A stretch of 64,000 bases of DNA from a candidate division CPR2 bacterium GW2011_GWC2_39_35 (GCA_000995065.1 LBWX01000003.1:22304-86303), one strand, 5' to 3'; shown: positions 1,660 to 54,320, counted from the first letter of the stretch. Numbers and translations are program-made. The notes: a model not told the origin generated them from the letters alone.

Positions 1660-4170
1660 TTACTTCCCTTCTTCCACTTTCTCCACTTCTTCTTCAATCT
1701 TTTCCTCCGTAACTAGGGTTACAGACGAAACTTTGTCTTTCTCATTTAGCCTCATTACTCTTACGCCCTGAGTTACTCGGCCGATTTTGTTTACTTGTTT
1801 TAATGGAAGTCTAATTACCACGCCTTGTTTGGAAACAATTACTAAGTCTTCTTTTAGGTCTTCTATAATCCTTACGTCCACAACCGGTCCGGTTTTTGGT
1901 GTAACAGAGGCGGCTTTAATGCCTACACCGCCGCGACGGTGCGGGGCAAATTCTTCCACATCGGTTCTTTTGCCGTAGCCGTTTTCCATAATTACCATCA
2001 TCTGCTGGCCTTTTTTGTCTTTAACTACCACATCGGTACCCATAATTTGATCGGTACCTTTCATCTTCATGCCCCTAACTCCTCTGGCACCGCGACCCAT
2101 TGGTCTAACATCTTTTTCAGAGAATCTATTAGCCATGCCGGATTTAGTGGCCATGATGATTTCGTCTTCGCCTGATGTGGTCTTAACCCAGCAAAGAGCA
2201 TCACCCTTGTCTAGATTTAGGGCAATCAAACCATTTTTTCGAACATTTTCAAATTGCTCAATGGCAACTTTTTTAATAACCCCAAATTTAGTGGCAAAGA
2301 ACAGGTATTTAGCGTCGGTTTTTTCGTCTTTGGAAACAGTGATAACGGAAGTTACAATTTCTTCCGGTGCTAACTGAATGAAGTTTACAATTGGCGAACC
2401 CTTGGCAATCCTGGAACCCATTGGTATTTCGTATACCTTTGTTCTAAACACACGGCCTTTGTTAGTAAAGAACATGATTTCATCGTGGTTGTGGGTTAAA
2501 ATCATGTGCTCCACGATATCTTCTTCTTTGGTTTGCATGCCCATTACGCCCTTACCACCGCGCTGTTGCTGGCGGAAAGTAGAGGCTAAAATTCTTTTAA
2601 TGTAGTTGCCCTTTGTTAAGGCTACAATCACGGTTTCGTTGGCAACTAAATCTTCTTCAGAGAATTCGCCAAGTCTATTTTTGATGATTTTTGACTTTCT
2701 GGCGTCTCCGTATTTAGTCTTAATTTCACCTAACTCTTCTTTAATAACTGCTAAGATTTTTTCCGGATGGGCAAGTAAGTCTTCCAGGTGAGCAATTAAC
2801 TTTTGAAGCTCGGCGTATTCGTCTTCTATTTTCTTTCTTTCCAAGCCGGCTAAAGTTTGAAGCCTCATGTCGAGAATTGCTTGAGCCTGAATATCGGTCA
2901 GCTTAAACTTGGTCATCAAATTTGTTTTAGCTTCTTCTTTGGTGGCGGATGCACGGATAGTTTTTATGACTTCGTCAATTTGACCCAAAGCAATGAGCAA
3001 ACCTTCTAAAATATGAGCCCGCTCTTTGGCTTTTCTTAAATCGTACTCAGCACGGCGAGTAACTACATTTTGCCTGTGCTTTATAAACTCTTCTAAGATA
3101 GTTTTAAGCGACAAAAGTCTTGGCTGAATACCATCAATTAAGGCAATCATATTAAAATGCAAAGCTGTTTGCATGTTAGTCATTTTGTAGAGCTGGTTTA
3201 AGATTTTGTTTGGATAAGCGTCTTTTTTAAGATCCACAACTACGCGCACACCCTTTTTGTCGGATTCATCCCTAAGATCGGAAATGCCCACAATCTTTTT
3301 GTCTTTTACCAAGTCGGCAATCTTGGAAACTAAATCAGACTTGTTAACTTGGTACGGAATTTCGGAAACGATAATTTGGAAACCGCCTTTTTTAGATTCC
3401 ACAATTTCGGCATTTGCCCGGATAATGACTTTTCCGCGACCGGTGCCGTAGGCCTGGGCCACTTCGTCTGCGTAAACAGTTGCCCCGGTTGGAAAGTCCG
3501 GACCTTTTATAAACTTCATAAGGTCTTCAACTGCTGCTTCTGGGTTGTCGATCAAATGCGTTGTTGCGTCTATTACTTCATTTAAATTATGCGGCGGAAT
3601 GTTGGTGGCCATACCCACGGCAATTCCCATCTGGCCGTTTACAAGCAAGTTAGGGATTCTGGATGGCAAGACTACCGGCTCTTTTACGGAGCCATCGTAG
3701 TTTGGCATAAAGTCTACAGTATCTTTTTCGATGTCAGTAAGCATTTCTTCGGCAACTGAGGTCATTCTGGCTTCAGTGTACCTCATTGCAGCAGCTGAAT
3801 CACCGTCCATGGAGCCAAAGTTACCCTGGCCATCTACTTGCGGATATCGAAGCGAGAAGTCTTGGGCCATTCGGACCATGGAATCATAAACCGCCGTGTC
3901 GCCGTGCGGATGGTATTTACCTAAAACTTCACCAACTACGAAAGCCGACTTTTTGTACTTTGCGTTATGCCGAAGCCCAAGAGAATTCATGGCGTAAAGA
4001 ATACGCCTATGAACCGGTTTTAAACCGTCCCTTACGTCCGGCAAAGCACGGGACACAATAACCGACATTGCATAATCTAGGTAAGACTGCTGCATTTCAT
4101 CTGTCATTTCCCGGGGTTTTACGTAACCAACGTTAAACGGAAGTTGTTCACCTGAACTTTTTTTAGCCAT
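1660..4170 (-). CDS. gyrA: DNA gyrase subunit A
   Basis: 836 aa; N-terminal MAKK...[32 protein letters not shown] and the active-site Tyr region typical of GyrA; the C-terminal beta-pinwheel repeats are present. Confidence 0.97.
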
Positions 4171-4385
4171 TTGCTCCTCTTTTTCTAGTTGTCATTGCAA
4201 GCCTTTAGACGAAGCAATCCCGTCCGATATTAACTAGATTGCCGCGATCGCTTAATTCTCCCTCGCAATGACTGAAATATTCTTTCTTAATATGTCTTTT
4301 AACTTATCCATTATACCTAATTTGAAGCTAAAAAACAAGTTTCTCATACAGCTTTTTAAAACCGGAAAATCAAGAGTCTAAAGGG

Positions 4386-4414
4386 TTGAAAAAAAAGCCT
4401 TTTTCTGGTATAAT
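4386..4414 (+). promoter_or_regulatory. sigma70-like promoter TTGAAA-17nt-TATAAT for the plus-strand operon 4502-7715
   Basis: TTGAAA at 4386-4391, 17-nt spacer, TATAAT at 4409-4414, about 85 nt upstream of a GTG with a GTGAGGAGG Shine-Dalgarno. Confidence 0.6.
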
Positions 4415-4501
4415 TCTCTAGCCGCGGAAGCGATAAATATAGATGTTCTAGATAGAAGGTTAAAATTTAAAAAATCGAATATAGTGAGGAGGAAAAACTA
4501 A

Positions 4502-4687
4502 GTGGTAAATGAAGCTAGAAATTCAAGAAAGCTAAGCGTGGGATTACCAGAAGCATTTGTCAGCCACTGGTGGAATGTTGGACTAGAGTATTTGCTCACC
4601 GCTTTAGGCGCTAATATTATCAAGTCTGGTAAAACCACTATGGCCAAATTCAATCGCGGTATCGAACTTGCACTTGCGGAATTCTGA
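4502..4687 (+). CDS. 61-aa ORF with a strong RBS, in the SAME reading frame as the following 277-aa ORF and separated from it only by TGA (4685-4687) plus 4 sense codons; likely the true N-terminus of an interrupted gene
   Basis: 4700-4502=198, divisible by 3; no other stop between 4502 and 5533; GTGAGGAGG SD 6 nt upstream of the GTG start. Confidence 0.4.
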   Translation: MVNEARNSRKLSVGLPEAFVSHWWNVGLEYLLTALGANIIKSGKTTMAKFNRGIELALAEF

Positions 4688-4699
4688 CCGGCAGTTAAG

Positions 4700-5533
4700 G
4701 TGGCAGTTGGCCATGTAGACTTTCTGGCAAAGAATCCGGAAGTCGATATTATCTTTCTTATCCGGCCTGTTGCTGAAGAGAGGCTGGAACTAAATTGCCC
4801 TTACATGTTGGGCTATCCAGACTACACCAGAATGCTCTTAAAGGAGCCGGGCAGGAAGATAAGATCACTACAAGTCGAGTTCAGATTACGGCCAGGAACC
4901 AAAGCCGGACAAGAGATCGAAGGCATCTTTAAATCAGAAATAGCTGAAATCGCCGAGATTTTCGGTGTAAGCTATCACTTGGTCAGGAAAGAATTCTTTG
5001 AAGCTCTGAAGCTGCAAAAAGAGCACGAGCGACAAGTATATCTAAACAAGTTGCTGCCGAACGGCCTGGAACAACCGGAATCCCCAAAATTCCGAGTACT
5101 TGCGTTGGGTCATTCGTACAACCTATGGGATAACATAATGTCGCATCACATCGTGTCAAAGATAATCGACCAGGGAGGACACGTAACCACCAAGGAAATG
5201 CTTGATAAAGAGCTCCTGTCTAAATGTGCAAAGCGCGGTCTTCCCAAAGAGCTATTTTGGACCCAGTCCAAACACCTTGCTGGTGCCGCTTTACAAGCTA
5301 TGAATACGGGATCGGTAGATGGGATTATGTTTATCCAAAGCTTCGGCTGCGGACCTGACGCAACTATCACTCCACTATTGGCTAGGGAAGCCAAAAAAGC
5401 AAAGATGCCTTTTTCGATCATCAACATAGACGTTCAAACTGCTGATGCCGGTATTGATACCAGGGTAGAAGCAACGGCGGACGCCTTGATTGAAGACATT
5501 TTAGAAGGAAGGAAGGTGAGAACGAAGTGTTAA
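4700..5533 (+). CDS. 2-hydroxyacyl-CoA dehydratase-like / DUF2229-family protein fragment (HgdB/YjiM-like), partner of the BadF-type ATPase; possibly one 343-aa gene with the 61-aa ORF, interrupted by a TGA
   Basis: 277 aa; FGCGPDATITPLL motif near the C-terminus as in HGD-D/DUF2229 proteins; no convincing independent start or SD; 7-nt overlap with the next ORF. Confidence 0.45.
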   Translation: MAVGHVDFLAKNPEVDIIFLIRPVAEERLELNCPYMLGYPDYTRMLLKEPGRKIRSLQVEFRLRPGTKAGQEIEGIFKSEIAEIAEIFGVSYHLVRKEFFEALKLQKEHERQVYLNKLLPNGLEQPESPKFRVLALGHSYNLWDNIMSHHIVSKIIDQGGHVTTKEMLDKELLSKCAKRGLPKELFWTQSKHLAGAALQAMNTGSVDGIMFIQSFGCGPDATITPLLAREAKKAKMPFSIINIDVQTADAGIDTRVEATADALIEDILEGRKVRTKC

Positions 5534-6720
5534 AGAAGTTCTTAAACCAAGCTAAATGGCTGCTCACAAAGAAAAAGATAGCAGTTCCAAGAATGGGCAC
5601 TTTGTACTGGCTCCTTTACCCTCTTTCTAAAAGGTTAAAGTTTGAGCTTCAGGAGCAACCCAAAATTACTCAAAAAACGGTTAAGAAAGGATCGCTTCAT
5701 GCCGAAGAAGGTATGTGCTTACCTTTTAAATACGTTTTAGGTAACTTCATGGATGCCCTGGAAAAAGGTGCAAATATTGTGCTCTTTGCTGGTGGAATCG
5801 GGCCATGCCGTTTTGGCTACTACTCGCCCCTTTTTGAAGCCACACTAAAAGACCTGGGCTATCTATTTAGATTAATTTCGATAGAACCATGGTTTACAGG
5901 AAGAGGCTTCATAGACAAGTACCGTTTTTGGCGATCTTTTGCCAAACTAGGCAGGGTTAAAAACCCGATTCGGATTGCTTGGGCAATTTGGGAAAGCTTT
6001 TACATTGCCCAGTGCATTGATGAGATTACCAGTATGCTCAATTACACACGAGCAATAGAAGTCAAAAAAGGCTCAACCAATAGAGCATATAGGAAAGCAC
6101 TGGATCTGCTAGCCAACTCCAAGCATTATTGGCAAGCTAAGCGGAACTTCGAGACAGCCAAAGAGATGATGGCTGCTATTAAAACCGATGCTTCCAAACT
6201 GAAAGGCGTCGTGGGAATCGTTGGTGAATTCTACGTAGTTCTGGAACCATCTGCCAATATGCGAATTATCGAGTGGCTAAATGATCATGGCATTGCTGTT
6301 ATTTGCTCGATATTTGTTACCGATTGGGTTGGCCCGGATACTTCACCCAAGGTTGCCCACATTAACAAAATCAAAGCCCATGAATTGGCTAAAAAGGAAG
6401 ATACATTCCACAGATGGTGTGGCGGCGATTGCACAGCAAACGTTGGTCACGCAGTCTATTTGATGGATCACCTTAACGTAGATGCAATCATCCAACTGCT
6501 TCCATTTACCTGCATGCCGGATACAATGGCAACGGTCGGCCTAATGGCAGTCACTGAAAAACGTGATATTCCGTTTGCCCGTTATATCTACGATGAACAT
6601 TCAGCGCTAGCAGGACTGGAAACAAGATGGGAAGGATTAATCGACACCATCGAGATGAAAAGACTGGACAAAGAACTTCATGAAATAGCTCAGAGAGAGG
6701 CGGTGCGAAGCAAAGTATGA
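5527..6720 (+). CDS. DUF2229 / CoA-substrate-specific enzyme activase-associated domain protein (HgdA/B-like partner subunit)
   Basis: 397 aa; EGMCLPFKYVLGNFMDAL...LFAGGIGPCRFGYY motif recalled from DUF2229 domains fused to BcrAD_BadFG ATPases; translationally coupled on both sides (overlaps 5533 and 6717). Confidence 0.5.
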   Translation: MLKKFLNQAKWLLTKKKIAVPRMGTLYWLLYPLSKRLKFELQEQPKITQKTVKKGSLHAEEGMCLPFKYVLGNFMDALEKGANIVLFAGGIGPCRFGYYSPLFEATLKDLGYLFRLISIEPWFTGRGFIDKYRFWRSFAKLGRVKNPIRIAWAIWESFYIAQCIDEITSMLNYTRAIEVKKGSTNRAYRKALDLLANSKHYWQAKRNFETAKEMMAAIKTDASKLKGVVGIVGEFYVVLEPSANMRIIEWLNDHGIAVICSIFVTDWVGPDTSPKVAHINKIKAHELAKKEDTFHRWCGGDCTANVGHAVYLMDHLNVDAIIQLLPFTCMPDTMATVGLMAVTEKRDIPFARYIYDEHSALAGLETRWEGLIDTIEMKRLDKELHEIAQREAVRSKV

Positions 6721-7715
6721 GAGGCTATTTAGGAATCGATGTTGGATCTGTTAGCACAGACCTGGCGGTGATAGATGAGAAAACTGACAAAGTCGTCGGC
6801 CTTGTATACATACGCACAAAGGGCCAACCAGTCGTCGCGGTCCAAGAAGGATTGAAAGAGCTTCTTGCCCAGTTCCCTAATGGGATCGAGATCATAGGAG
6901 CAGGAACCACAGGAAGTGCACGTAATATAGCCGGGCTTATGATAAATGCCGATCTAATCAAGAATGAGATCACAGCTCATGCAAAAGCAACGGCATTTTT
7001 CCACCCCAAAACAAGGACCGTATTCGAAATCGGCGGGCAAGATAGTAAATTGATACTACTGGAAAATGGCCGTCTAAAAGATTTCGCGATGAATACGGTG
7101 TGCGCTGCGGGAACGGGATCTTTCTTAGACCAGCAAGCCGGGCGACTTGGTATAACAATCGAGGAATTTAGCAATGAAGCTTTAAAAAGCGAAGTTAAGT
7201 GTCGTATTTCTGGACGCTGTGCGGTGTTTGCCGAATCAGATATGATTCACAAGGCCAATGCCGGTTACAGAAGACCAGACATTGTCTACGGGCTATGCGA
7301 AGCCCTTGTCAGAAATTTCCTTAACAATCTTGCAAAGGGCAAGGAGTTAAAAAGCCCCATCGTCTTCCAGGGTGGCGTTGCCGCAAATGCCGGGATGGTA
7401 AAAGCTTTTGGAGAAACAGTGGGAATCGAAATAATCGTTCCTGAATACCATCATTGCATGGGTGCCATTGGCTCATCATTACTGGCGAAGCTGCATATCC
7501 AAAGAACTGGCCTACAAACCACCTTCTCCGGTTTCGACAGTATCAACCTTGACTTCTCCAGTAGAAGTTTCAACTGCGACGGGTGCGAGAACGAATGCGA
7601 AATCTCAACTTTAATGAGAGACGATGAAGTTCTCGCCTGCAAGGGCAGTATCTGTAAGAAATATGACAACGTTACAGGTCATATTGACGAGGTACTTCAA
7701 CTAGCAAACGCCTAG
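6717..7715 (+). CDS. BadF/BadG/BcrA/BcrD-family ATPase (2-hydroxyglutaryl-CoA dehydratase activator HgdC-like) with an extra Cys-rich C-terminal tail
   Basis: 332 aa; LGIDVGSVSTDLAV, IGAGTTGSARN and VFEIGGQDSK actin-fold ATPase motifs; ATGA overlap with the upstream gene; tail CDGCENEC...C...C. Confidence 0.8.
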   Translation: MRGYLGIDVGSVSTDLAVIDEKTDKVVGLVYIRTKGQPVVAVQEGLKELLAQFPNGIEIIGAGTTGSARNIAGLMINADLIKNEITAHAKATAFFHPKTRTVFEIGGQDSKLILLENGRLKDFAMNTVCAAGTGSFLDQQAGRLGITIEEFSNEALKSEVKCRISGRCAVFAESDMIHKANAGYRRPDIVYGLCEALVRNFLNNLAKGKELKSPIVFQGGVAANAGMVKAFGETVGIEIIVPEYHHCMGAIGSSLLAKLHIQRTGLQTTFSGFDSINLDFSSRSFNCDGCENECEISTLMRDDEVLACKGSICKKYDNVTGHIDEVLQLANA

Positions 7716-7749
7716 CGCAAATGCAAGACGAGAGTCTATAAAATACAAA

Positions 7750-7809
7750 GGCGGGAGCCTCAATGGTCTACATGACATTGAGCAACTCCCGTCTTTTCGC
7801 TTTTTATAG
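7750..7809 (+). terminator. intrinsic terminator after the activase operon
   Basis: Imperfect hairpin GGCGGGAGCCTCAATG...CATTGAGCAACTCCCGTC followed by TTTTCGCTTTTTATAGGCTTTTTT. Confidence 0.55.
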
Positions 7810-7815
7810 GCTTTT

Positions 7816-9903
<2,088 letters not shown>

Positions 9904-18773: not shown

Positions 18774-19250
18774 CTATGATGCAGCTTTCGCTTTCTTTTT
18801 CTCTTCTGTAAAAACAAAGAGCCAGGCATACAAAAGAACAAATTCGATTGCAAACATTATAAGATTCAAGCCATCTACTGCCGGACTTGTCCATTTAGCA
18901 GCAAGCCAAAAATTAGCGTTCATCACCATTACAACAATCAAAGCAGCTAGAGTAATTTCTCTTCTAAATTTAAGTCGCTTGTTTAGAAGAATAGTTAAAG
19001 CAGCTAAGGCTAAAATTAATCCAGACAAAAGTTCGCCCCAGCTAACCATAATACCAAACGCTGTGGCATTCGGAATGGCTGTCTCAGAAAGAAAAGACTT
19101 ATAAAGCCCAAAGGGATTTTTGGAAGCAAAGTATCCGAGAGTTTTTTCCATGCCTCCTACAAATTCACCACCGGTTACTTTCTCCCAGCCACCCTTAAGC
19201 CATTCGAGACTAATTATTAGCTGCACTACTACTAACAGTCTTTTTTCCAT
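18774..19250 (-). CDS. small polytopic membrane protein, possibly DoxX-like
   Basis: 158 aa with 4 hydrophobic segments; the start may be internal because the track ORF overlaps the kinase gene by 41 nt. Confidence 0.35.
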   Translation of the reverse strand: MEKRLLVVVQLIISLEWLKGGWEKVTGGEFVGGMEKTLGYFASKNPFGLYKSFLSETAIPNATAFGIMVSWGELLSGLILALAALTILLNKRLKFRREITLAALIVVMVMNANFWLAAKWTSPAVDGLNLIMFAIEFVLLYAWLFVFTEEKKKAKAAS

Positions 19251-21153
19251 ATTCTCCTCCTTTTCTTTTATTCGATTCCTTATTTATGGGTATAGAAACA
19301 TAAAATACCGATCCTCGTCCTTCTATGGATTCGAACCAAATCCTACCTTTAAACCTTTGAACGATCTCCTTTATAATATATAATCCCAGACCATTGCCTT
19401 CATTTTCCCCGGTATTACCCGCTCGATAAAATTTTTGGAACAGATTTTTTTGTTCCTCAATCGGTATACCAATTCCCTCATCCCGAACAGAAACCACTGC
19501 CATACCAATTTCATTTGTGACTTTTACGGCAATGTTCTTACTTTCACCGGAGTACTTACTAGCATTTGATAAAAGATTTTGAATAACCTGCCTAAAATAA
19601 GTCTTATCGGCATCTATATAAAAGCTGCTTTCGCATTCTAAAACTATGGTTTGTTTTCTGGGCTCAATAATTGGTACCATAGATTCGATAATAGCAGCAA
19701 CCGTTTCTTTTAGATCAAGGGTCTCCGCCTTAAGCTTTAATCTGCCAGTTTCGATTCTCGAAATATCCAATAAATCTTTTACAAGTTCTCTCATTTGAGA
19801 ATTTGATTTATAAGCTGATTTTAGAATATTTCTCTGCTCGTCATTCAATTTGCCGAATTTTTCAGAAACAATCACTTCGATTGCCCACTGAACGGCAGTT
19901 AACGGGGAATTGAGCTGATGGGAAGTAATAGAAACAAATTCCGATTTCATCTCATTTACTTCCTTTTCTTTGGTAGCGTCCCTTATAACATAAACTGATC
20001 CAAAATCATGCTCATCAAACTGAAATCTATTAGCCGCTCCCTTAACAGAAATTATACCGCCGCTTTTTTTACTGATATCGCAATAATTCTCCGGCTTGCA
20101 ATAACCCTGATTTGTCAAATTTTTCTGAATATAACCAAAATGTTCTTTTTCCTTAAAAATCAAGATCTTTTCCAGATCTTCATTTAGAGCCTCTGATTCT
20201 CTAAAGCCAGTAATTAGTTCTGCCATAGGATTAAAAATTATTATTTTATTTTCGCTATCTGTAACTATAACTCCGTCGCCGATATTTTCTAAAATTGATT
20301 TAACCCTCTGTGTTTCTTCGCTCATACTGTCATAAGAGACCCTAAGATGCTGCATCATTTTGTTGTAGCTTCTAGCCAAGTTTCCAATCTCATCTTTAGC
20401 AATTTCATTCGCTCTTAAACTTTTTGAAAAATTGGTCTGTTTCATAACTCTTTCGAGGTCAACTAAGGGTTTGTTAATAGTTATATGAATTAAAAACCTA
20501 ATAAGAAGCATCCCGAAGAGAACCAACAAATAAATATATATCATTCCATTTATGGCACCCTTCTTTAAATTGTCGATTTGAAAAATAAGATCTTCTCTTA
20601 AAACCGATATCTTATAATTTACATCCTGAAGATCATAAATGATATCGAAAGTAGCCGGGTGGATTTCTTTATGAATAATTTTTAGCTCATCCTTATTTTT
20701 AGCTTGCAGCGTTTTCTGAGTGAATTGATTTAATTTATCCATCTCTTGGTCAAGAAATTCAGAAAATGATAAATTATTAACTGTCAAATCCGGACTGTTG
20801 TTGCTGTCGTGCCTTTCGCGATATTCAATTTCTATAAACTGCTTCAAGCTATCAAAAGCAGGTTTTAATTCCTCGGATCTCTTTATGAAGAGTACTTTTT
20901 TATCGTTCGAATATTCGTCTGCATATTCAAAATGAGCTTGAGCGTAGTTTATTATTGCCCAATTTGCCTTACCCAGCCTTGATAAAAATTCAACATGCTT
21001 TTGAAGATGAGTACTGGCGTCAGAAATTTTAAGAAAAGTCTTAAAATCGGTTACTAAAGCTAAAACAATAAGCAAAAAGGCTCCGGCAGAAAATATGAGC
21101 GTCTTTTGGTTTATTTTAAGATCTCGGAATTTTTTCCAGACAAAACTAAACAT
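19210..21153 (-). CDS. sensor histidine kinase (2 TM, extracytoplasmic sensor, PAS, HisKA, HATPase_c); no response regulator adjacent
   Basis: PAS segment LENIGDGVIVTD...FNPMAELITG; H-box SHQLNSPLTAV; G-boxes GNGLGLYIIKEIV...GRGSVFYVSIP. Confidence 0.9.
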   Translation of the reverse strand: MFSFVWKKFRDLKINQKTLIFSAGAFLLIVLALVTDFKTFLKISDASTHLQKHVEFLSRLGKANWAIINYAQAHFEYADEYSNDKKVLFIKRSEELKPAFDSLKQFIEIEYRERHDSNNSPDLTVNNLSFSEFLDQEMDKLNQFTQKTLQAKNKDELKIIHKEIHPATFDIIYDLQDVNYKISVLREDLIFQIDNLKKGAINGMIYIYLLVLFGMLLIRFLIHITINKPLVDLERVMKQTNFSKSLRANEIAKDEIGNLARSYNKMMQHLRVSYDSMSEETQRVKSILENIGDGVIVTDSENKIIIFNPMAELITGFRESEALNEDLEKILIFKEKEHFGYIQKNLTNQGYCKPENYCDISKKSGGIISVKGAANRFQFDEHDFGSVYVIRDATKEKEVNEMKSEFVSITSHQLNSPLTAVQWAIEVIVSEKFGKLNDEQRNILKSAYKSNSQMRELVKDLLDISRIETGRLKLKAETLDLKETVAAIIESMVPIIEPRKQTIVLECESSFYIDADKTYFRQVIQNLLSNASKYSGESKNIAVKVTNEIGMAVVSVRDEGIGIPIEEQKNLFQKFYRAGNTGENEGNGLGLYIIKEIVQRFKGRIWFESIEGRGSVFYVSIPINKESNKRKGGEYGKKTVSSSAANN

Positions 21154-53262: not shown

Positions 53263-53451
53263 TTACTCTTCTACCTCAATGGCGCCGGCGGGACAAGATT
53301 CCGCAATTTCATTAAGATCGCATGATTCACAATTACAGCTTTCTGCCTTTACATGACATTTATTATCATCTCGAAGCTCAAAAACTTCCTCGCAGGAATT
53401 TACACAAACCCCACACCCGATACATAAATTTTGATCTACAGTTACTTTCAT
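53263..53451 (-). CDS. 2x[4Fe-4S] ferredoxin
   Basis: 62 aa; CIGCGVCVNSC and CNCESC...C motifs. Confidence 0.85.
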   Translation of the reverse strand: MKVTVDQNLCIGCGVCVNSCEEVFELRDDNKCHVKAESCNCESCDLNEIAESCPAGAIEVEE

Positions 53452-53870: not shown

Positions 53871-54320
53871 TTAAGATTCTGCACCTACTAGCACAAATCC
53901 AATCTTTGATGCAGATTCAACCGGAAGCTTGTTGGCTAGCCAATCATCCATGCCCCCTTGATGTACAAAAACCGATAATTTATTTTCTTTAAACAGATTT
54001 ATTGCCTCAGAAATATCATTGGTATCCTTACCGGTAACAATATAAGACCTGTCTTTGGGCAAATTTTCGATTACTTTTCTAAGATCATCGATATTATAAT
54101 TCATGGCATTCGGAATATGGCCACTCTTAAATGAAGATGAATCTCTAATATCTAAAATAATATATTCATTATTATTTTTCTCGACTATTTGATAGACCTG
54201 GTTTGAGGTTATTATTCCTTCGTGTTTTTCACCTGTCATTCTTTTAGCCAGAACGCCGCCCTGCCAGACCACCATAACAAGAACAACAAACCAACAAATC
54301 GGTACATATTTTTTTAACAT
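53871..54320 (-). CDS. rhodanese-like domain protein (membrane-anchored or secreted); the catalytic Cys is apparently absent
   Basis: 149 aa; N-terminal TM; rhodanese fold signature LDIRDSSSFKSGHIPNAMN, but the active-site loop reads YIVTGKDTND (no Cys). Confidence 0.6.
   Translation of the reverse strand: MLKKYVPICWFVVLVMVVWQGGVLAKRMTGEKHEGIITSNQVYQIVEKNNNEYIILDIRDSSSFKSGHIPNAMNYNIDDLRKVIENLPKDRSYIVTGKDTNDISEAINLFKENKLSVFVHQGGMDDWLANKLPVESASKIGFVLVGAES

Follow-up and report, generated by a model that had tools for sequence, protein, structure and literature searches.

The stretch of DNA analysed here, in the following called the window, comprises 64,000 nucleotides (nt) of candidate division CPR2 bacterium GW2011_GWC2_39_35 (GCA_000995065.1, LBWX01000003.1:22304-86303), a bacterium of the candidate phyla radiation (CPR) from aquifer groundwater; all positions are counted from the first letter of the window. 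Between gyrA and gyrB, which are both located on the minus strand, the window carries a plus-strand unit of three overlapping genes, henceforth called genes A, B, and C. This unit was interpreted as a self-contained operon encoding a split member of the DUF2229 branch of the benzoyl-CoA reductase/2-hydroxyacyl-CoA dehydratase (BCR/HAD) superfamily, possibly of the lipid-ester reductase type and most likely acquired horizontally, and a probability of roughly 0.55 was assigned to this interpretation. The most consequential feature of the locus is an in-frame TGA codon in gene A, located at a position at which the family carries a cysteine. The features of the locus are the following (aa, amino acids):

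1660-4170, minus strand: gyrA (PF00521, PF03989)
4386-7815, plus strand: unit between gyrA and gyrB, three overlapping genes in the order A-B-C
4386-4414, plus strand: promoter TTGAAA-17-TATAAT with TG extended -10 element, 11 of 12 matches, top-scoring site in 4100-7900
4486-4492, plus strand: Shine-Dalgarno sequence GAGGAGG, 9 nt upstream of the GTG start of gene A
4502-4684, plus strand: N-terminal 61 codons of gene A, ending in ...LALAEF, N-terminal part of DUF2229
4685-4687, plus strand: in-frame TGA of gene A, context TGAC, at the family cysteine of E-x-C-x-P-x-K
4688-4727, plus strand: stem-loop directly 3' of the TGA with the apical loop AGUUG at 4705-4709, candidate selenocysteine insertion sequence (SECIS)
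4688-5533, plus strand: C-terminal 281 codons of gene A and stop codon, rest of DUF2229 and HGD-D-like C-terminus
5527-6720, plus strand: gene B, 397 aa, DUF2229-type subunit (PF09989), paralogue of gene A
6717-7715, plus strand: gene C, 332 aa, HgdC-type activase (PF01869, TIGR00241)
7730-7815, both strands: bidirectional intrinsic terminator of gene C and gyrB, with a GC-rich hairpin at 7746-7799, a T-run at 7797-7809, and an A-tract on the other side
7816-9873/9900, minus strand: gyrB, convergent with gene C

A first-pass annotation of the window had placed an operon with a promoter and a terminator of its own on the plus strand, between the minus-strand genes gyrA and gyrB, and this was confirmed by the coordinates, the promoter match, and the fold of the terminator. 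For the 100 nt 3' of gene C (7716-7815), the folding energy is -41.3 kcal/mol (z = -6.8), a value reached by none of 200 shuffled sequences. Genes A and B overlap by 7 nt (GTG start of gene B at 5527, stop codon of gene A at 5531-5533), genes B and C share the sequence ATGA (6717-6720), and the three genes are translationally coupled. The operon leader, i.e., the 80 nt of the 5' untranslated region, had no Rfam match at gathering score and a fold z-score of -0.9; no sign of a riboswitch or structured leader was thus detected upstream of gene A. The divergent intergenic region between gyrA and the operon is flanked by a 16-nt inverted repeat (88% complementary; 4195-4210 and 4376-4391), the right arm of which overlaps the -35 box of the operon; this repeat could be a shared regulatory site.

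The product of gene C was assigned to the activases of the superfamily, scoring 153.2 bits against PF01869 (cut-off 31.5) and 187.8 bits against TIGR00241 "acyl-CoA dehydratase activase" (cut-off 125.4), and the BadF/BadG/BcrA/BcrD ATPase named in the first-pass annotation was thus found as described. The scores of gene C against the NCBIfam equivalog models for BCR were far under their cut-offs. Its closest relatives of solved structure are MbdQ (2.4e-38), HadI, and HgdC (1e-33 to 1e-35 for the latter two), and DCCP-R was matched at 7.6e-21. Gene C keeps the ASKHA phosphate-binding motif (GIDVGSVS), and its segments MNTVC129AAGTG and GRC168AVFAESD align with MNDKCAAGTG and SSTCTVFAESE of HgdC (PDB 1HUX); we take Cys129 and Cys168 to be the equivalents of the ligands of the [4Fe-4S] cluster that bridges the HgdC subunits. 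At the C-terminus, gene C additionally carries a conserved tail of four cysteines (C-x2-C-x3-C-x18-C, residues 285-315, window positions 7569-7661), henceforth called the Cys4 tail, which is not present in HgdC or HadI and could represent an additional site for a metal or Fe-S cluster. Both NCBI and UniRef name gene C "activator of (R)-2-hydroxyglutaryl-CoA dehydratase HgdC."

Genes A and B were both assigned to DUF2229. For gene B, PF09989 was matched at 39.1 bits (cut-off 29.4), and for gene A, joined across the TGA (4502-4684 and 4688-5530), at 90.1 bits over positions 2-218 of the 218 profile positions, a full-profile match that is obtained only if the TGA is read through. Gene B retains all 19 of 19 invariant columns, including the cysteines Cys64 (C-L-P-F-K), Cys94 (G-P-C-R), and Cys329 (F-T-C-M-P); the conserved cysteines of gene A besides the TGA site are Cys99 (N-C-P) and Cys283 (F-G-C-G-P-D). 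From this conservation, the three cysteine positions in each of the two proteins are predicted to hold one [4Fe-4S] cluster. Against PF06050 (HGD-D), gene A reached 23.3 bits, below the cut-off of 28.4 and with its C-terminal third only, and gene B had no match; NCBIfam models were matched by neither. Of the two coupled HgdB/DUF2229-like proteins in the first-pass annotation, the family assignment and the coupling by gene overlap therefore hold; by hidden Markov models, BcrAD_BadFG was recovered for gene C and DUF2229 for joined gene A and gene B, with HGD-D sub-threshold in A and missing in B. The single sequence of gene A gave almost no matches in the PDB. A profile of the A family matched solved structures only with the C-terminal 68 residues, where FGCGPD aligns with the cysteine segment of DCCP and HadC. 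The AlphaFold model of an A-type homologue (P0003, pLDDT 93.5) matched DCCP, HadBC, BzdNO, and MbdON with a probability of 1.0 at a TM-score of about 0.5 and had no other convincing fold matches, so that, as far as this model indicates, the HGD-D similarity of gene A is at the level of the fold only. From the family and fold matches together it follows that the unit encodes an activase together with two subunits of the catalytic type, which are paralogues within the BCR/HAD superfamily.

Relatives of gene C are numerous (at least 8,000 proteins at 1e-20 or better). The best 120 of them are stand-alone proteins of about 320-340 aa with 55-64% identity, and those with names belong to Actinomycetota (Aquicultor, Geothermincolia, Coriobacteriia), Clostridia and other Firmicutes, and Anaerolineae; among these named relatives, no CPR bacterium other than CPR2 itself was present. 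Best matches of genes A and B were at 38% and about 30% identity, respectively, and both evolve much faster than gene C across the whole family. The same gene order A-B-C was found in seven other loci (L096, L098, L099, L104, L105, L113, L114) of anaerobic Firmicutes and Actinomycetota. A scan of metagenomes further yielded three fused proteins (L106, L110, L112), each about 1400 aa long, that are collinear with the operon products in the order C-C-A-B: the two activase domains at the N-terminus each align with gene C, the first DUF2229 unit corresponds to gene A, and the final unit to gene B, with identities of 24-27% for A and 21-23% for B. The Cys4 tail of gene C is common to the second activase domain and missing from the first. 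The collinearity bears out the earlier suggestion that the operon is a split version of the large "CoA-substrate-specific enzyme activase" proteins; these had also been called uncharacterised, which does not apply, as the same BBD(H)D(H) architecture has been published for Ger, a glycerol ester reductase and modified PlsA (PMC13159169). In anaerobes, plasmalogens are made by PlsA/PlsR, a synthase placed in the BCR/HAD family (PMC9702350, PMC12838417), and the BBD part, consisting of two activase domains and DUF2229/HGD-D units, is conserved across PlsA/PlsR and Ger (PMC13159169). In these papers, the lipid ester reductases PlsA/PlsR and Ger are the only characterised proteins with this architecture; the activity that marks them is the conversion, without oxygen, of an sn-1 ester into a vinyl or alkyl ether.

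In spore-forming Firmicutes, A-B-C is located directly downstream of spoVAC/D/E and the GerA-family gene spoVAF (L114, 3935-11018; L099, 257-6152; L104, 1137-7005; L100), with spoIIAA, spoIIAB, and sigF further upstream; in L114, A-B-C overlaps the stop codon of spoVAF. This arrangement suggests a sporulation-linked role of the split form in Firmicutes and is a second testable lead for its function, and it has no counterpart in the non-sporulating CPR2. A literature search returned no study of the split A-B-C form and nothing linking it to spoVA.

The TGA at 4685-4687 is codon 62 of gene A and did not feature in the first-pass annotation. Because of it, all gene callers split gene A into products of 61 aa and 277 aa, public annotations silently list two "hypothetical proteins" in its place, and a full-length gene A protein is impossible by standard decoding. 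The codon aligns with the cysteine of E-x-C-x-P-x-K in 5 of the 5 nearest database homologues. When 1.84 billion cluster representatives were searched with the 281-aa part after the TGA, cysteine was found at this position in every one of the 122 proteins that, of the 150 nearest representatives, are complete at the N-terminus, and in the related loci read as DNA it is encoded by TGT or TGC in 10 of 10 cases (7 split, 3 fused); a TGA at this site was thus found in none of these 122 relatives and 10 loci, among which there is no close relative of the CPR2 lineage, as the databases searched contain none. Three apparent TGA-interrupted homologues (P0037, P0047, P0069) were rejected: two have the cysteine upstream (mis-called start or N-gaps), and the third runs into the end of its contig. 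An assembly or sequencing error was ruled out, as the locus, including the TGA, is 100% identical over 3645 nt in assemblies from JGI (two samples), NCBI (GCA_003500505.1), ENA, and Logan, which stem from several sequencing runs. An alternative genetic code with UGA as glycine or tryptophan, as in some CPR relatives, was likewise ruled out, since TGA terminates 7 of the 31 long open reading frames of the window and no other gene of the window was found to contain a TGA between two long coding segments. Re-initiation at the GTG at 4700 was rejected as a source of a functional 277-aa protein, because the conserved N-terminal third would be lost and no usable ribosome-binding site precedes this GTG.

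Next to the TGA, the conserved proline of C-x-P-x-K is shifted by one position (residues 62-66, U-P-A-V-K, with U for the TGA), a change that, in the alignment, is lineage-specific and stands beside a predicted cluster ligand. Gene A deviates from the family at 14 of 50 conserved columns and is the most divergent family member there. On a common taxon set, CPR2 is the longest branch for A, B, and C alike, and decay specific to gene A was rejected on this basis: with B and C as long-branched as A, the divergence of gene A is an effect of the lineage and gives no evidence of pseudogene decay.

As to the fate of the TGA, the explanation given the most weight, at slightly below even odds, is a recent, fixed nonsense mutation (TGC/TGT to TGA), by which the operon would be the freshly inactivated remnant of an acquired module and the hairpin behind the codon coincidental. 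A single base change suffices for this, although only 2.1% of the nonsense paths (3 of 141 single-nucleotide paths) would strike one of the three conserved cysteine codons. The codon is an ordinary stop in this organism, as seen in the 7 of 31 reading frames, and is unique within the family; none of the genes for selenocysteine (Sec) use, i.e., tRNA-Sec, selA, selB, and selD, was found in the window and its flanks (about 78 kb). The population is clonal, given the 100% identity over 3645 nt, so that a recent mutation would appear fixed, and accessory genes of streamlined genomes are prone to loss; yet no second lesion was found in the 3.2 kb of coding sequence. The shifted proline also fits a mutated site, whereas the hairpin argues against coincidence at a level of about 5% even if the peptide sequence is controlled for. 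If a nonsense mutation is the correct explanation, the acquired module was caught at the first step of its loss.

Tentatively, and at odds of well under one half, gene A may instead be a selenoprotein gene, in which UGA-62 would be read as Sec by SelB via the hairpin at 4688-4727, placing Sec at the first cluster-ligand position and leaving the operon fully functional. The TGA lies exactly on the cysteine found in all homologues checked, is fixed across all assemblies, and has the context TGAC, the 7 real TGA stops of the window being TGAT or TGAG; the 2.1% chance of a random nonsense mutation at a conserved cysteine codon speaks for a Sec codon as well. No homologue, however, has a TGA at this site. 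For the 45 nt that follow the TGA, the folding energy is -14.5 kcal/mol compared to a window mean of -5.8 ± 3.3 kcal/mol, and the 5-nt apical loop AGUUG contains G-U and starts 18 nt past the TGA. This energy is equalled at 1.05% of 14,649 coding positions of the window, and energy and geometry together at 0.2%; in homologues that encode cysteine, the corresponding segment forms less stable structures (-1.4 to -9.3 kcal/mol). Within the operon, however, 1.75% of positions fold as well, and so do 4.4-5.5% of synonymous recodings of the same peptide, by which the hairpin is only marginally significant at fixed peptide. Promoter, ribosome-binding site, coupling, and terminator are intact, genes B and C retain all invariant residues, and the divergence of gene A from the family is no greater than that of gene B. 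Weighing on the other side are the missing Sec genes in the 78 kb and the literature search, in which no account of Sec being used by CPR bacteria or by the family of DUF2229/BCR-HAD catalytic subunits was found. The replacement of cysteine by Sec in a horizontally acquired, all-cysteine family would also be of unusual direction. If gene A does encode Sec, it would possibly be the first selenoprotein among the DUF2229/BCR-HAD catalytic subunits and the first case of Sec decoding in CPR bacteria (Patescibacteria), with Sec as a natural ligand at an iron-sulfur site. Some other kind of read-through of the gene A TGA was considered unlikely, though worth some weight.

Concerning its origin, the operon was most likely acquired by the CPR2 lineage through horizontal transfer from anaerobic Firmicutes or Actinomycetota, and not recently. 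This is suggested by the 55-64% identity of gene C to non-CPR activases, compared to at most 60% identity of GyrB to any relative found, and by base composition: with 44.6% GC compared to 39.4 ± 2.5% in the window (39.3% for the window as a whole), the operon is the GC-richest 3.4-kb stretch (+2.1 standard deviations (SD)), and the GC content at third codon positions is 0.43-0.47 compared to 0.374 ± 0.042. As the identity of genes A and B to any other sequence found does not exceed 24-38%, the transfer would have to be ancient.

The first-pass annotation had favoured a more recent event, in which a foreign island was inserted into, and split, an ancestral gyrB-gyrA operon, and this was judged quite unlikely. 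The orientation of the operon opposite to both gyrase genes, its own promoter and terminator, its non-CPR relatives, and its rank as the GC-richest 3.4 kb of the window would fit such an island. The GC excess claimed there is real (the 120-nt sample at 6721-6840 is exactly 50% GC, and the operon the richest stretch) but modest and within the range of conserved host genes: the operon is just 1.8 points above gyrA and gyrB (42.8-42.9%), its GC content is equalled in uvrA and some further genes, and its codon-usage distance lies inside the host range. Flanking direct or other repeats, integrase, transposase, or other mobile-element genes were not found at the operon, and the 24-38% identity of A and B to their nearest relatives does not agree with a recent arrival. 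As to synteny, gyrA follows directly downstream of gyrB in about 23 non-CPR loci of 80, so adjacency is common in other phyla, but gyrA was present in 0 of the 20 fetched flanks of the best GyrB loci (mostly labelled CPR, 56-60% identity), at least 12 of which have 5-10 kb downstream. Since the nearest CPR genomes do not keep gyrA beside gyrB, the premise of a conserved gyrB-gyrA pair fails for this clade, and the proposed insertion into such a pair is not demonstrable. With no relative above 60% GyrB identity, presence or absence of the operon at the site is not comparable between genomes, and with all assemblies representing one clone, there is no empty site for comparison.

For the operon as an ancient, split BCR/HAD module, a mechanism can be proposed by analogy with the superfamily. 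The gene C product would form a homodimer bridged by a [4Fe-4S] cluster on Cys129 and Cys168, which would be reduced by a low-potential donor such as ferredoxin. ATP hydrolysis by gene C would then inject one electron into the cluster of an A/B heterodimer, and at this cluster the reduction of a substrate carbonyl or ester would proceed via a radical of the ketyl type. A 62-aa 4Fe-4S ferredoxin is encoded about 45 kb from the operon, next to trmD (about 53263-53451, minus strand), and is a candidate electron donor for the activase; a 149-aa protein with a rhodanese domain (about 53871-54320, minus strand) also adjoins trmD.

No CoA-transferase or acyl-CoA genes were found in 9 split-operon neighbourhoods (CPR2 and 8 related ones). 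Together with the collinearity over the whole length with PlsA/Ger-type proteins, this makes a non-CoA ester the most likely substrate, plausibly the sn-1 acyl ester of a glycerophospholipid, which would imply ether-lipid formation; as a specific assignment this was held with less than even confidence. A classical 2-hydroxyacyl-CoA dehydratase (HgdAB plus HgdC) for amino-acid fermentation is highly improbable, since, although databases name gene C an HgdC activator, gene C matches HgdC and HadI at 1e-33 to 1e-35, and the A-type fold resembles HadBC, gene A remains below the PF06050 threshold (23.3 of 28.4 bits) and gene B has no match, the A-family profile covers just 68 C-terminal residues of HadC, and no CoA-transferase, dehydrogenase, or fermentation partner lies beside the CPR2 operon or the 8 related split operons, which speaks against a fermentative enzyme and fits a stand-alone lipid-modifying enzyme like PlsA/Ger.

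Several points weigh against the interpretation as an acquired operon of the lipid-ester reductase type. Its composition is only modestly unlike that of the host, and marks of mobile elements were not found. The link to PlsA/Ger is based on published architecture, with A (24-27%) and B (21-23%) being distant from the fused proteins, and the operon has a single activase gene instead of two domains. The CPR2 proteins form the longest branch in all three genes, and the operon would currently be without function if gene A is a null allele. The genomes of CPR bacteria are tiny, and these organisms are generally thought to be without lipid biosynthesis and to live on host material. An ATP-consuming, oxygen-sensitive radical enzyme akin to bacterial ether-lipid synthases would be an unexpected investment and could indicate that ester lipids scavenged by CPR2 are converted into ether lipids. 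For the substrate, there is now a concrete, though unproven, hypothesis in ether-lipid formation.

Outside the operon, a c-di-GMP-II (cyclic di-GMP) riboswitch (RF01786) was identified at 49075-49160 on the minus strand (62.4 bits, gathering score 53.5), upstream of a 115-aa protein without Pfam match (about 48555-48902); to our knowledge, second-messenger riboswitches are not expected in a CPR genome. Left of the window, past gyrA, two very large PAS/HisKA/HATPase_c sensor kinases of 951 and 987 aa and three stand-alone response regulators are encoded directly beside gyrA (L091, 12833-20603), and a further 647-aa PAS kinase is located inside the window (19210-21153). The load of signalling genes gives the impression of being high for a reduced genome. 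A split pheS in the ENA scaffold ERZ28564383 (L082, L087) was traced to N-gaps and is not a real difference.

Compared with known systems, gene A resembles bacterial selenoprotein genes that have cysteine homologues in its in-frame UGA at a conserved redox or metal-binding cysteine and in a hairpin that follows directly, with G-U in the apical loop and at a fitting distance. It differs from them in that it has no Sec-containing orthologue, Sec machinery was not seen in the 78 kb, and no precedent was found in the family or in CPR bacteria. Class I benzoyl-CoA reductases (BcrABCD, BzdNOPQ, MbdONPQ; PDB 8S02, 9GAI) include MbdQ, the best PDB sequence match of gene C, and BzdNO and MbdON, matched by the A-type fold; unlike CPR2 with its one ATPase gene and no aromatic pathway, they have two different ATPase subunits and are encoded in aromatic-degradation clusters. 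Of the proteins with solved structures, DCCP and DCCP-R (PDB 6ENO, 7YYL) were matched best by the A family in both the fold and the profile comparison, and their activase is related to gene C. DCCP requires a seven-cysteine motif for its [8Fe-9S] cluster (bioRxiv 10.1101/2022.07.06.499078), whereas A and B of CPR2 have only three conserved cysteines each, unlike DCCP of the NF040772 type. The 2-hydroxyacyl-CoA dehydratases (HgdAB/HgdC, HadBC/HadI; PDB 1HUX, 4EHT, 3O3M) share with CPR2 an activase homologue with both cysteine motifs, a fold like that of HadB/HadC in the A-type protein, and, as predicted for CPR2, two paralogous [4Fe-4S] subunits with an ATP-driven activator; CPR2 differs in that A and B are under the PF06050 threshold, CoA-transferase neighbours are missing, and the activase has the additional Cys4 tail.

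The likeness to Ger (Thermotoga maritima Tmari_0479, Desulfatibacillum alkenivorans SHJ90043) and PlsA/PlsR (Clostridium perfringens CPE1194-1195; single-gene PlsA in Enterococcus, Lactococcus, and Bifidobacterium, with EF1327 among those tested experimentally) is one of published architecture. The building blocks are the same (PF01869, PF09989, and a PF06050-like C-terminus), and the genes stand alone without CoA-pathway neighbours. CPR2 differs in having three genes A-B-C instead of one or two genes B-B-D-D, in its one activase gene, which is equivalent to the second domain (Cys4 tail), and in the TGA that replaces the first ligand cysteine in gene A. From end to end, the fused proteins of Ger/PlsA architecture show collinearity with C, A, and B; their first DUF2229 unit shares E-x-C-x-P-x-K and F-G-C-G-P-D/N, and their second unit C-x-P, G-P-C-R, and C-[ML]-P. 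Measured against these systems, the operon is a new, divergent, split form of a known kind of enzyme in an unexpected host.

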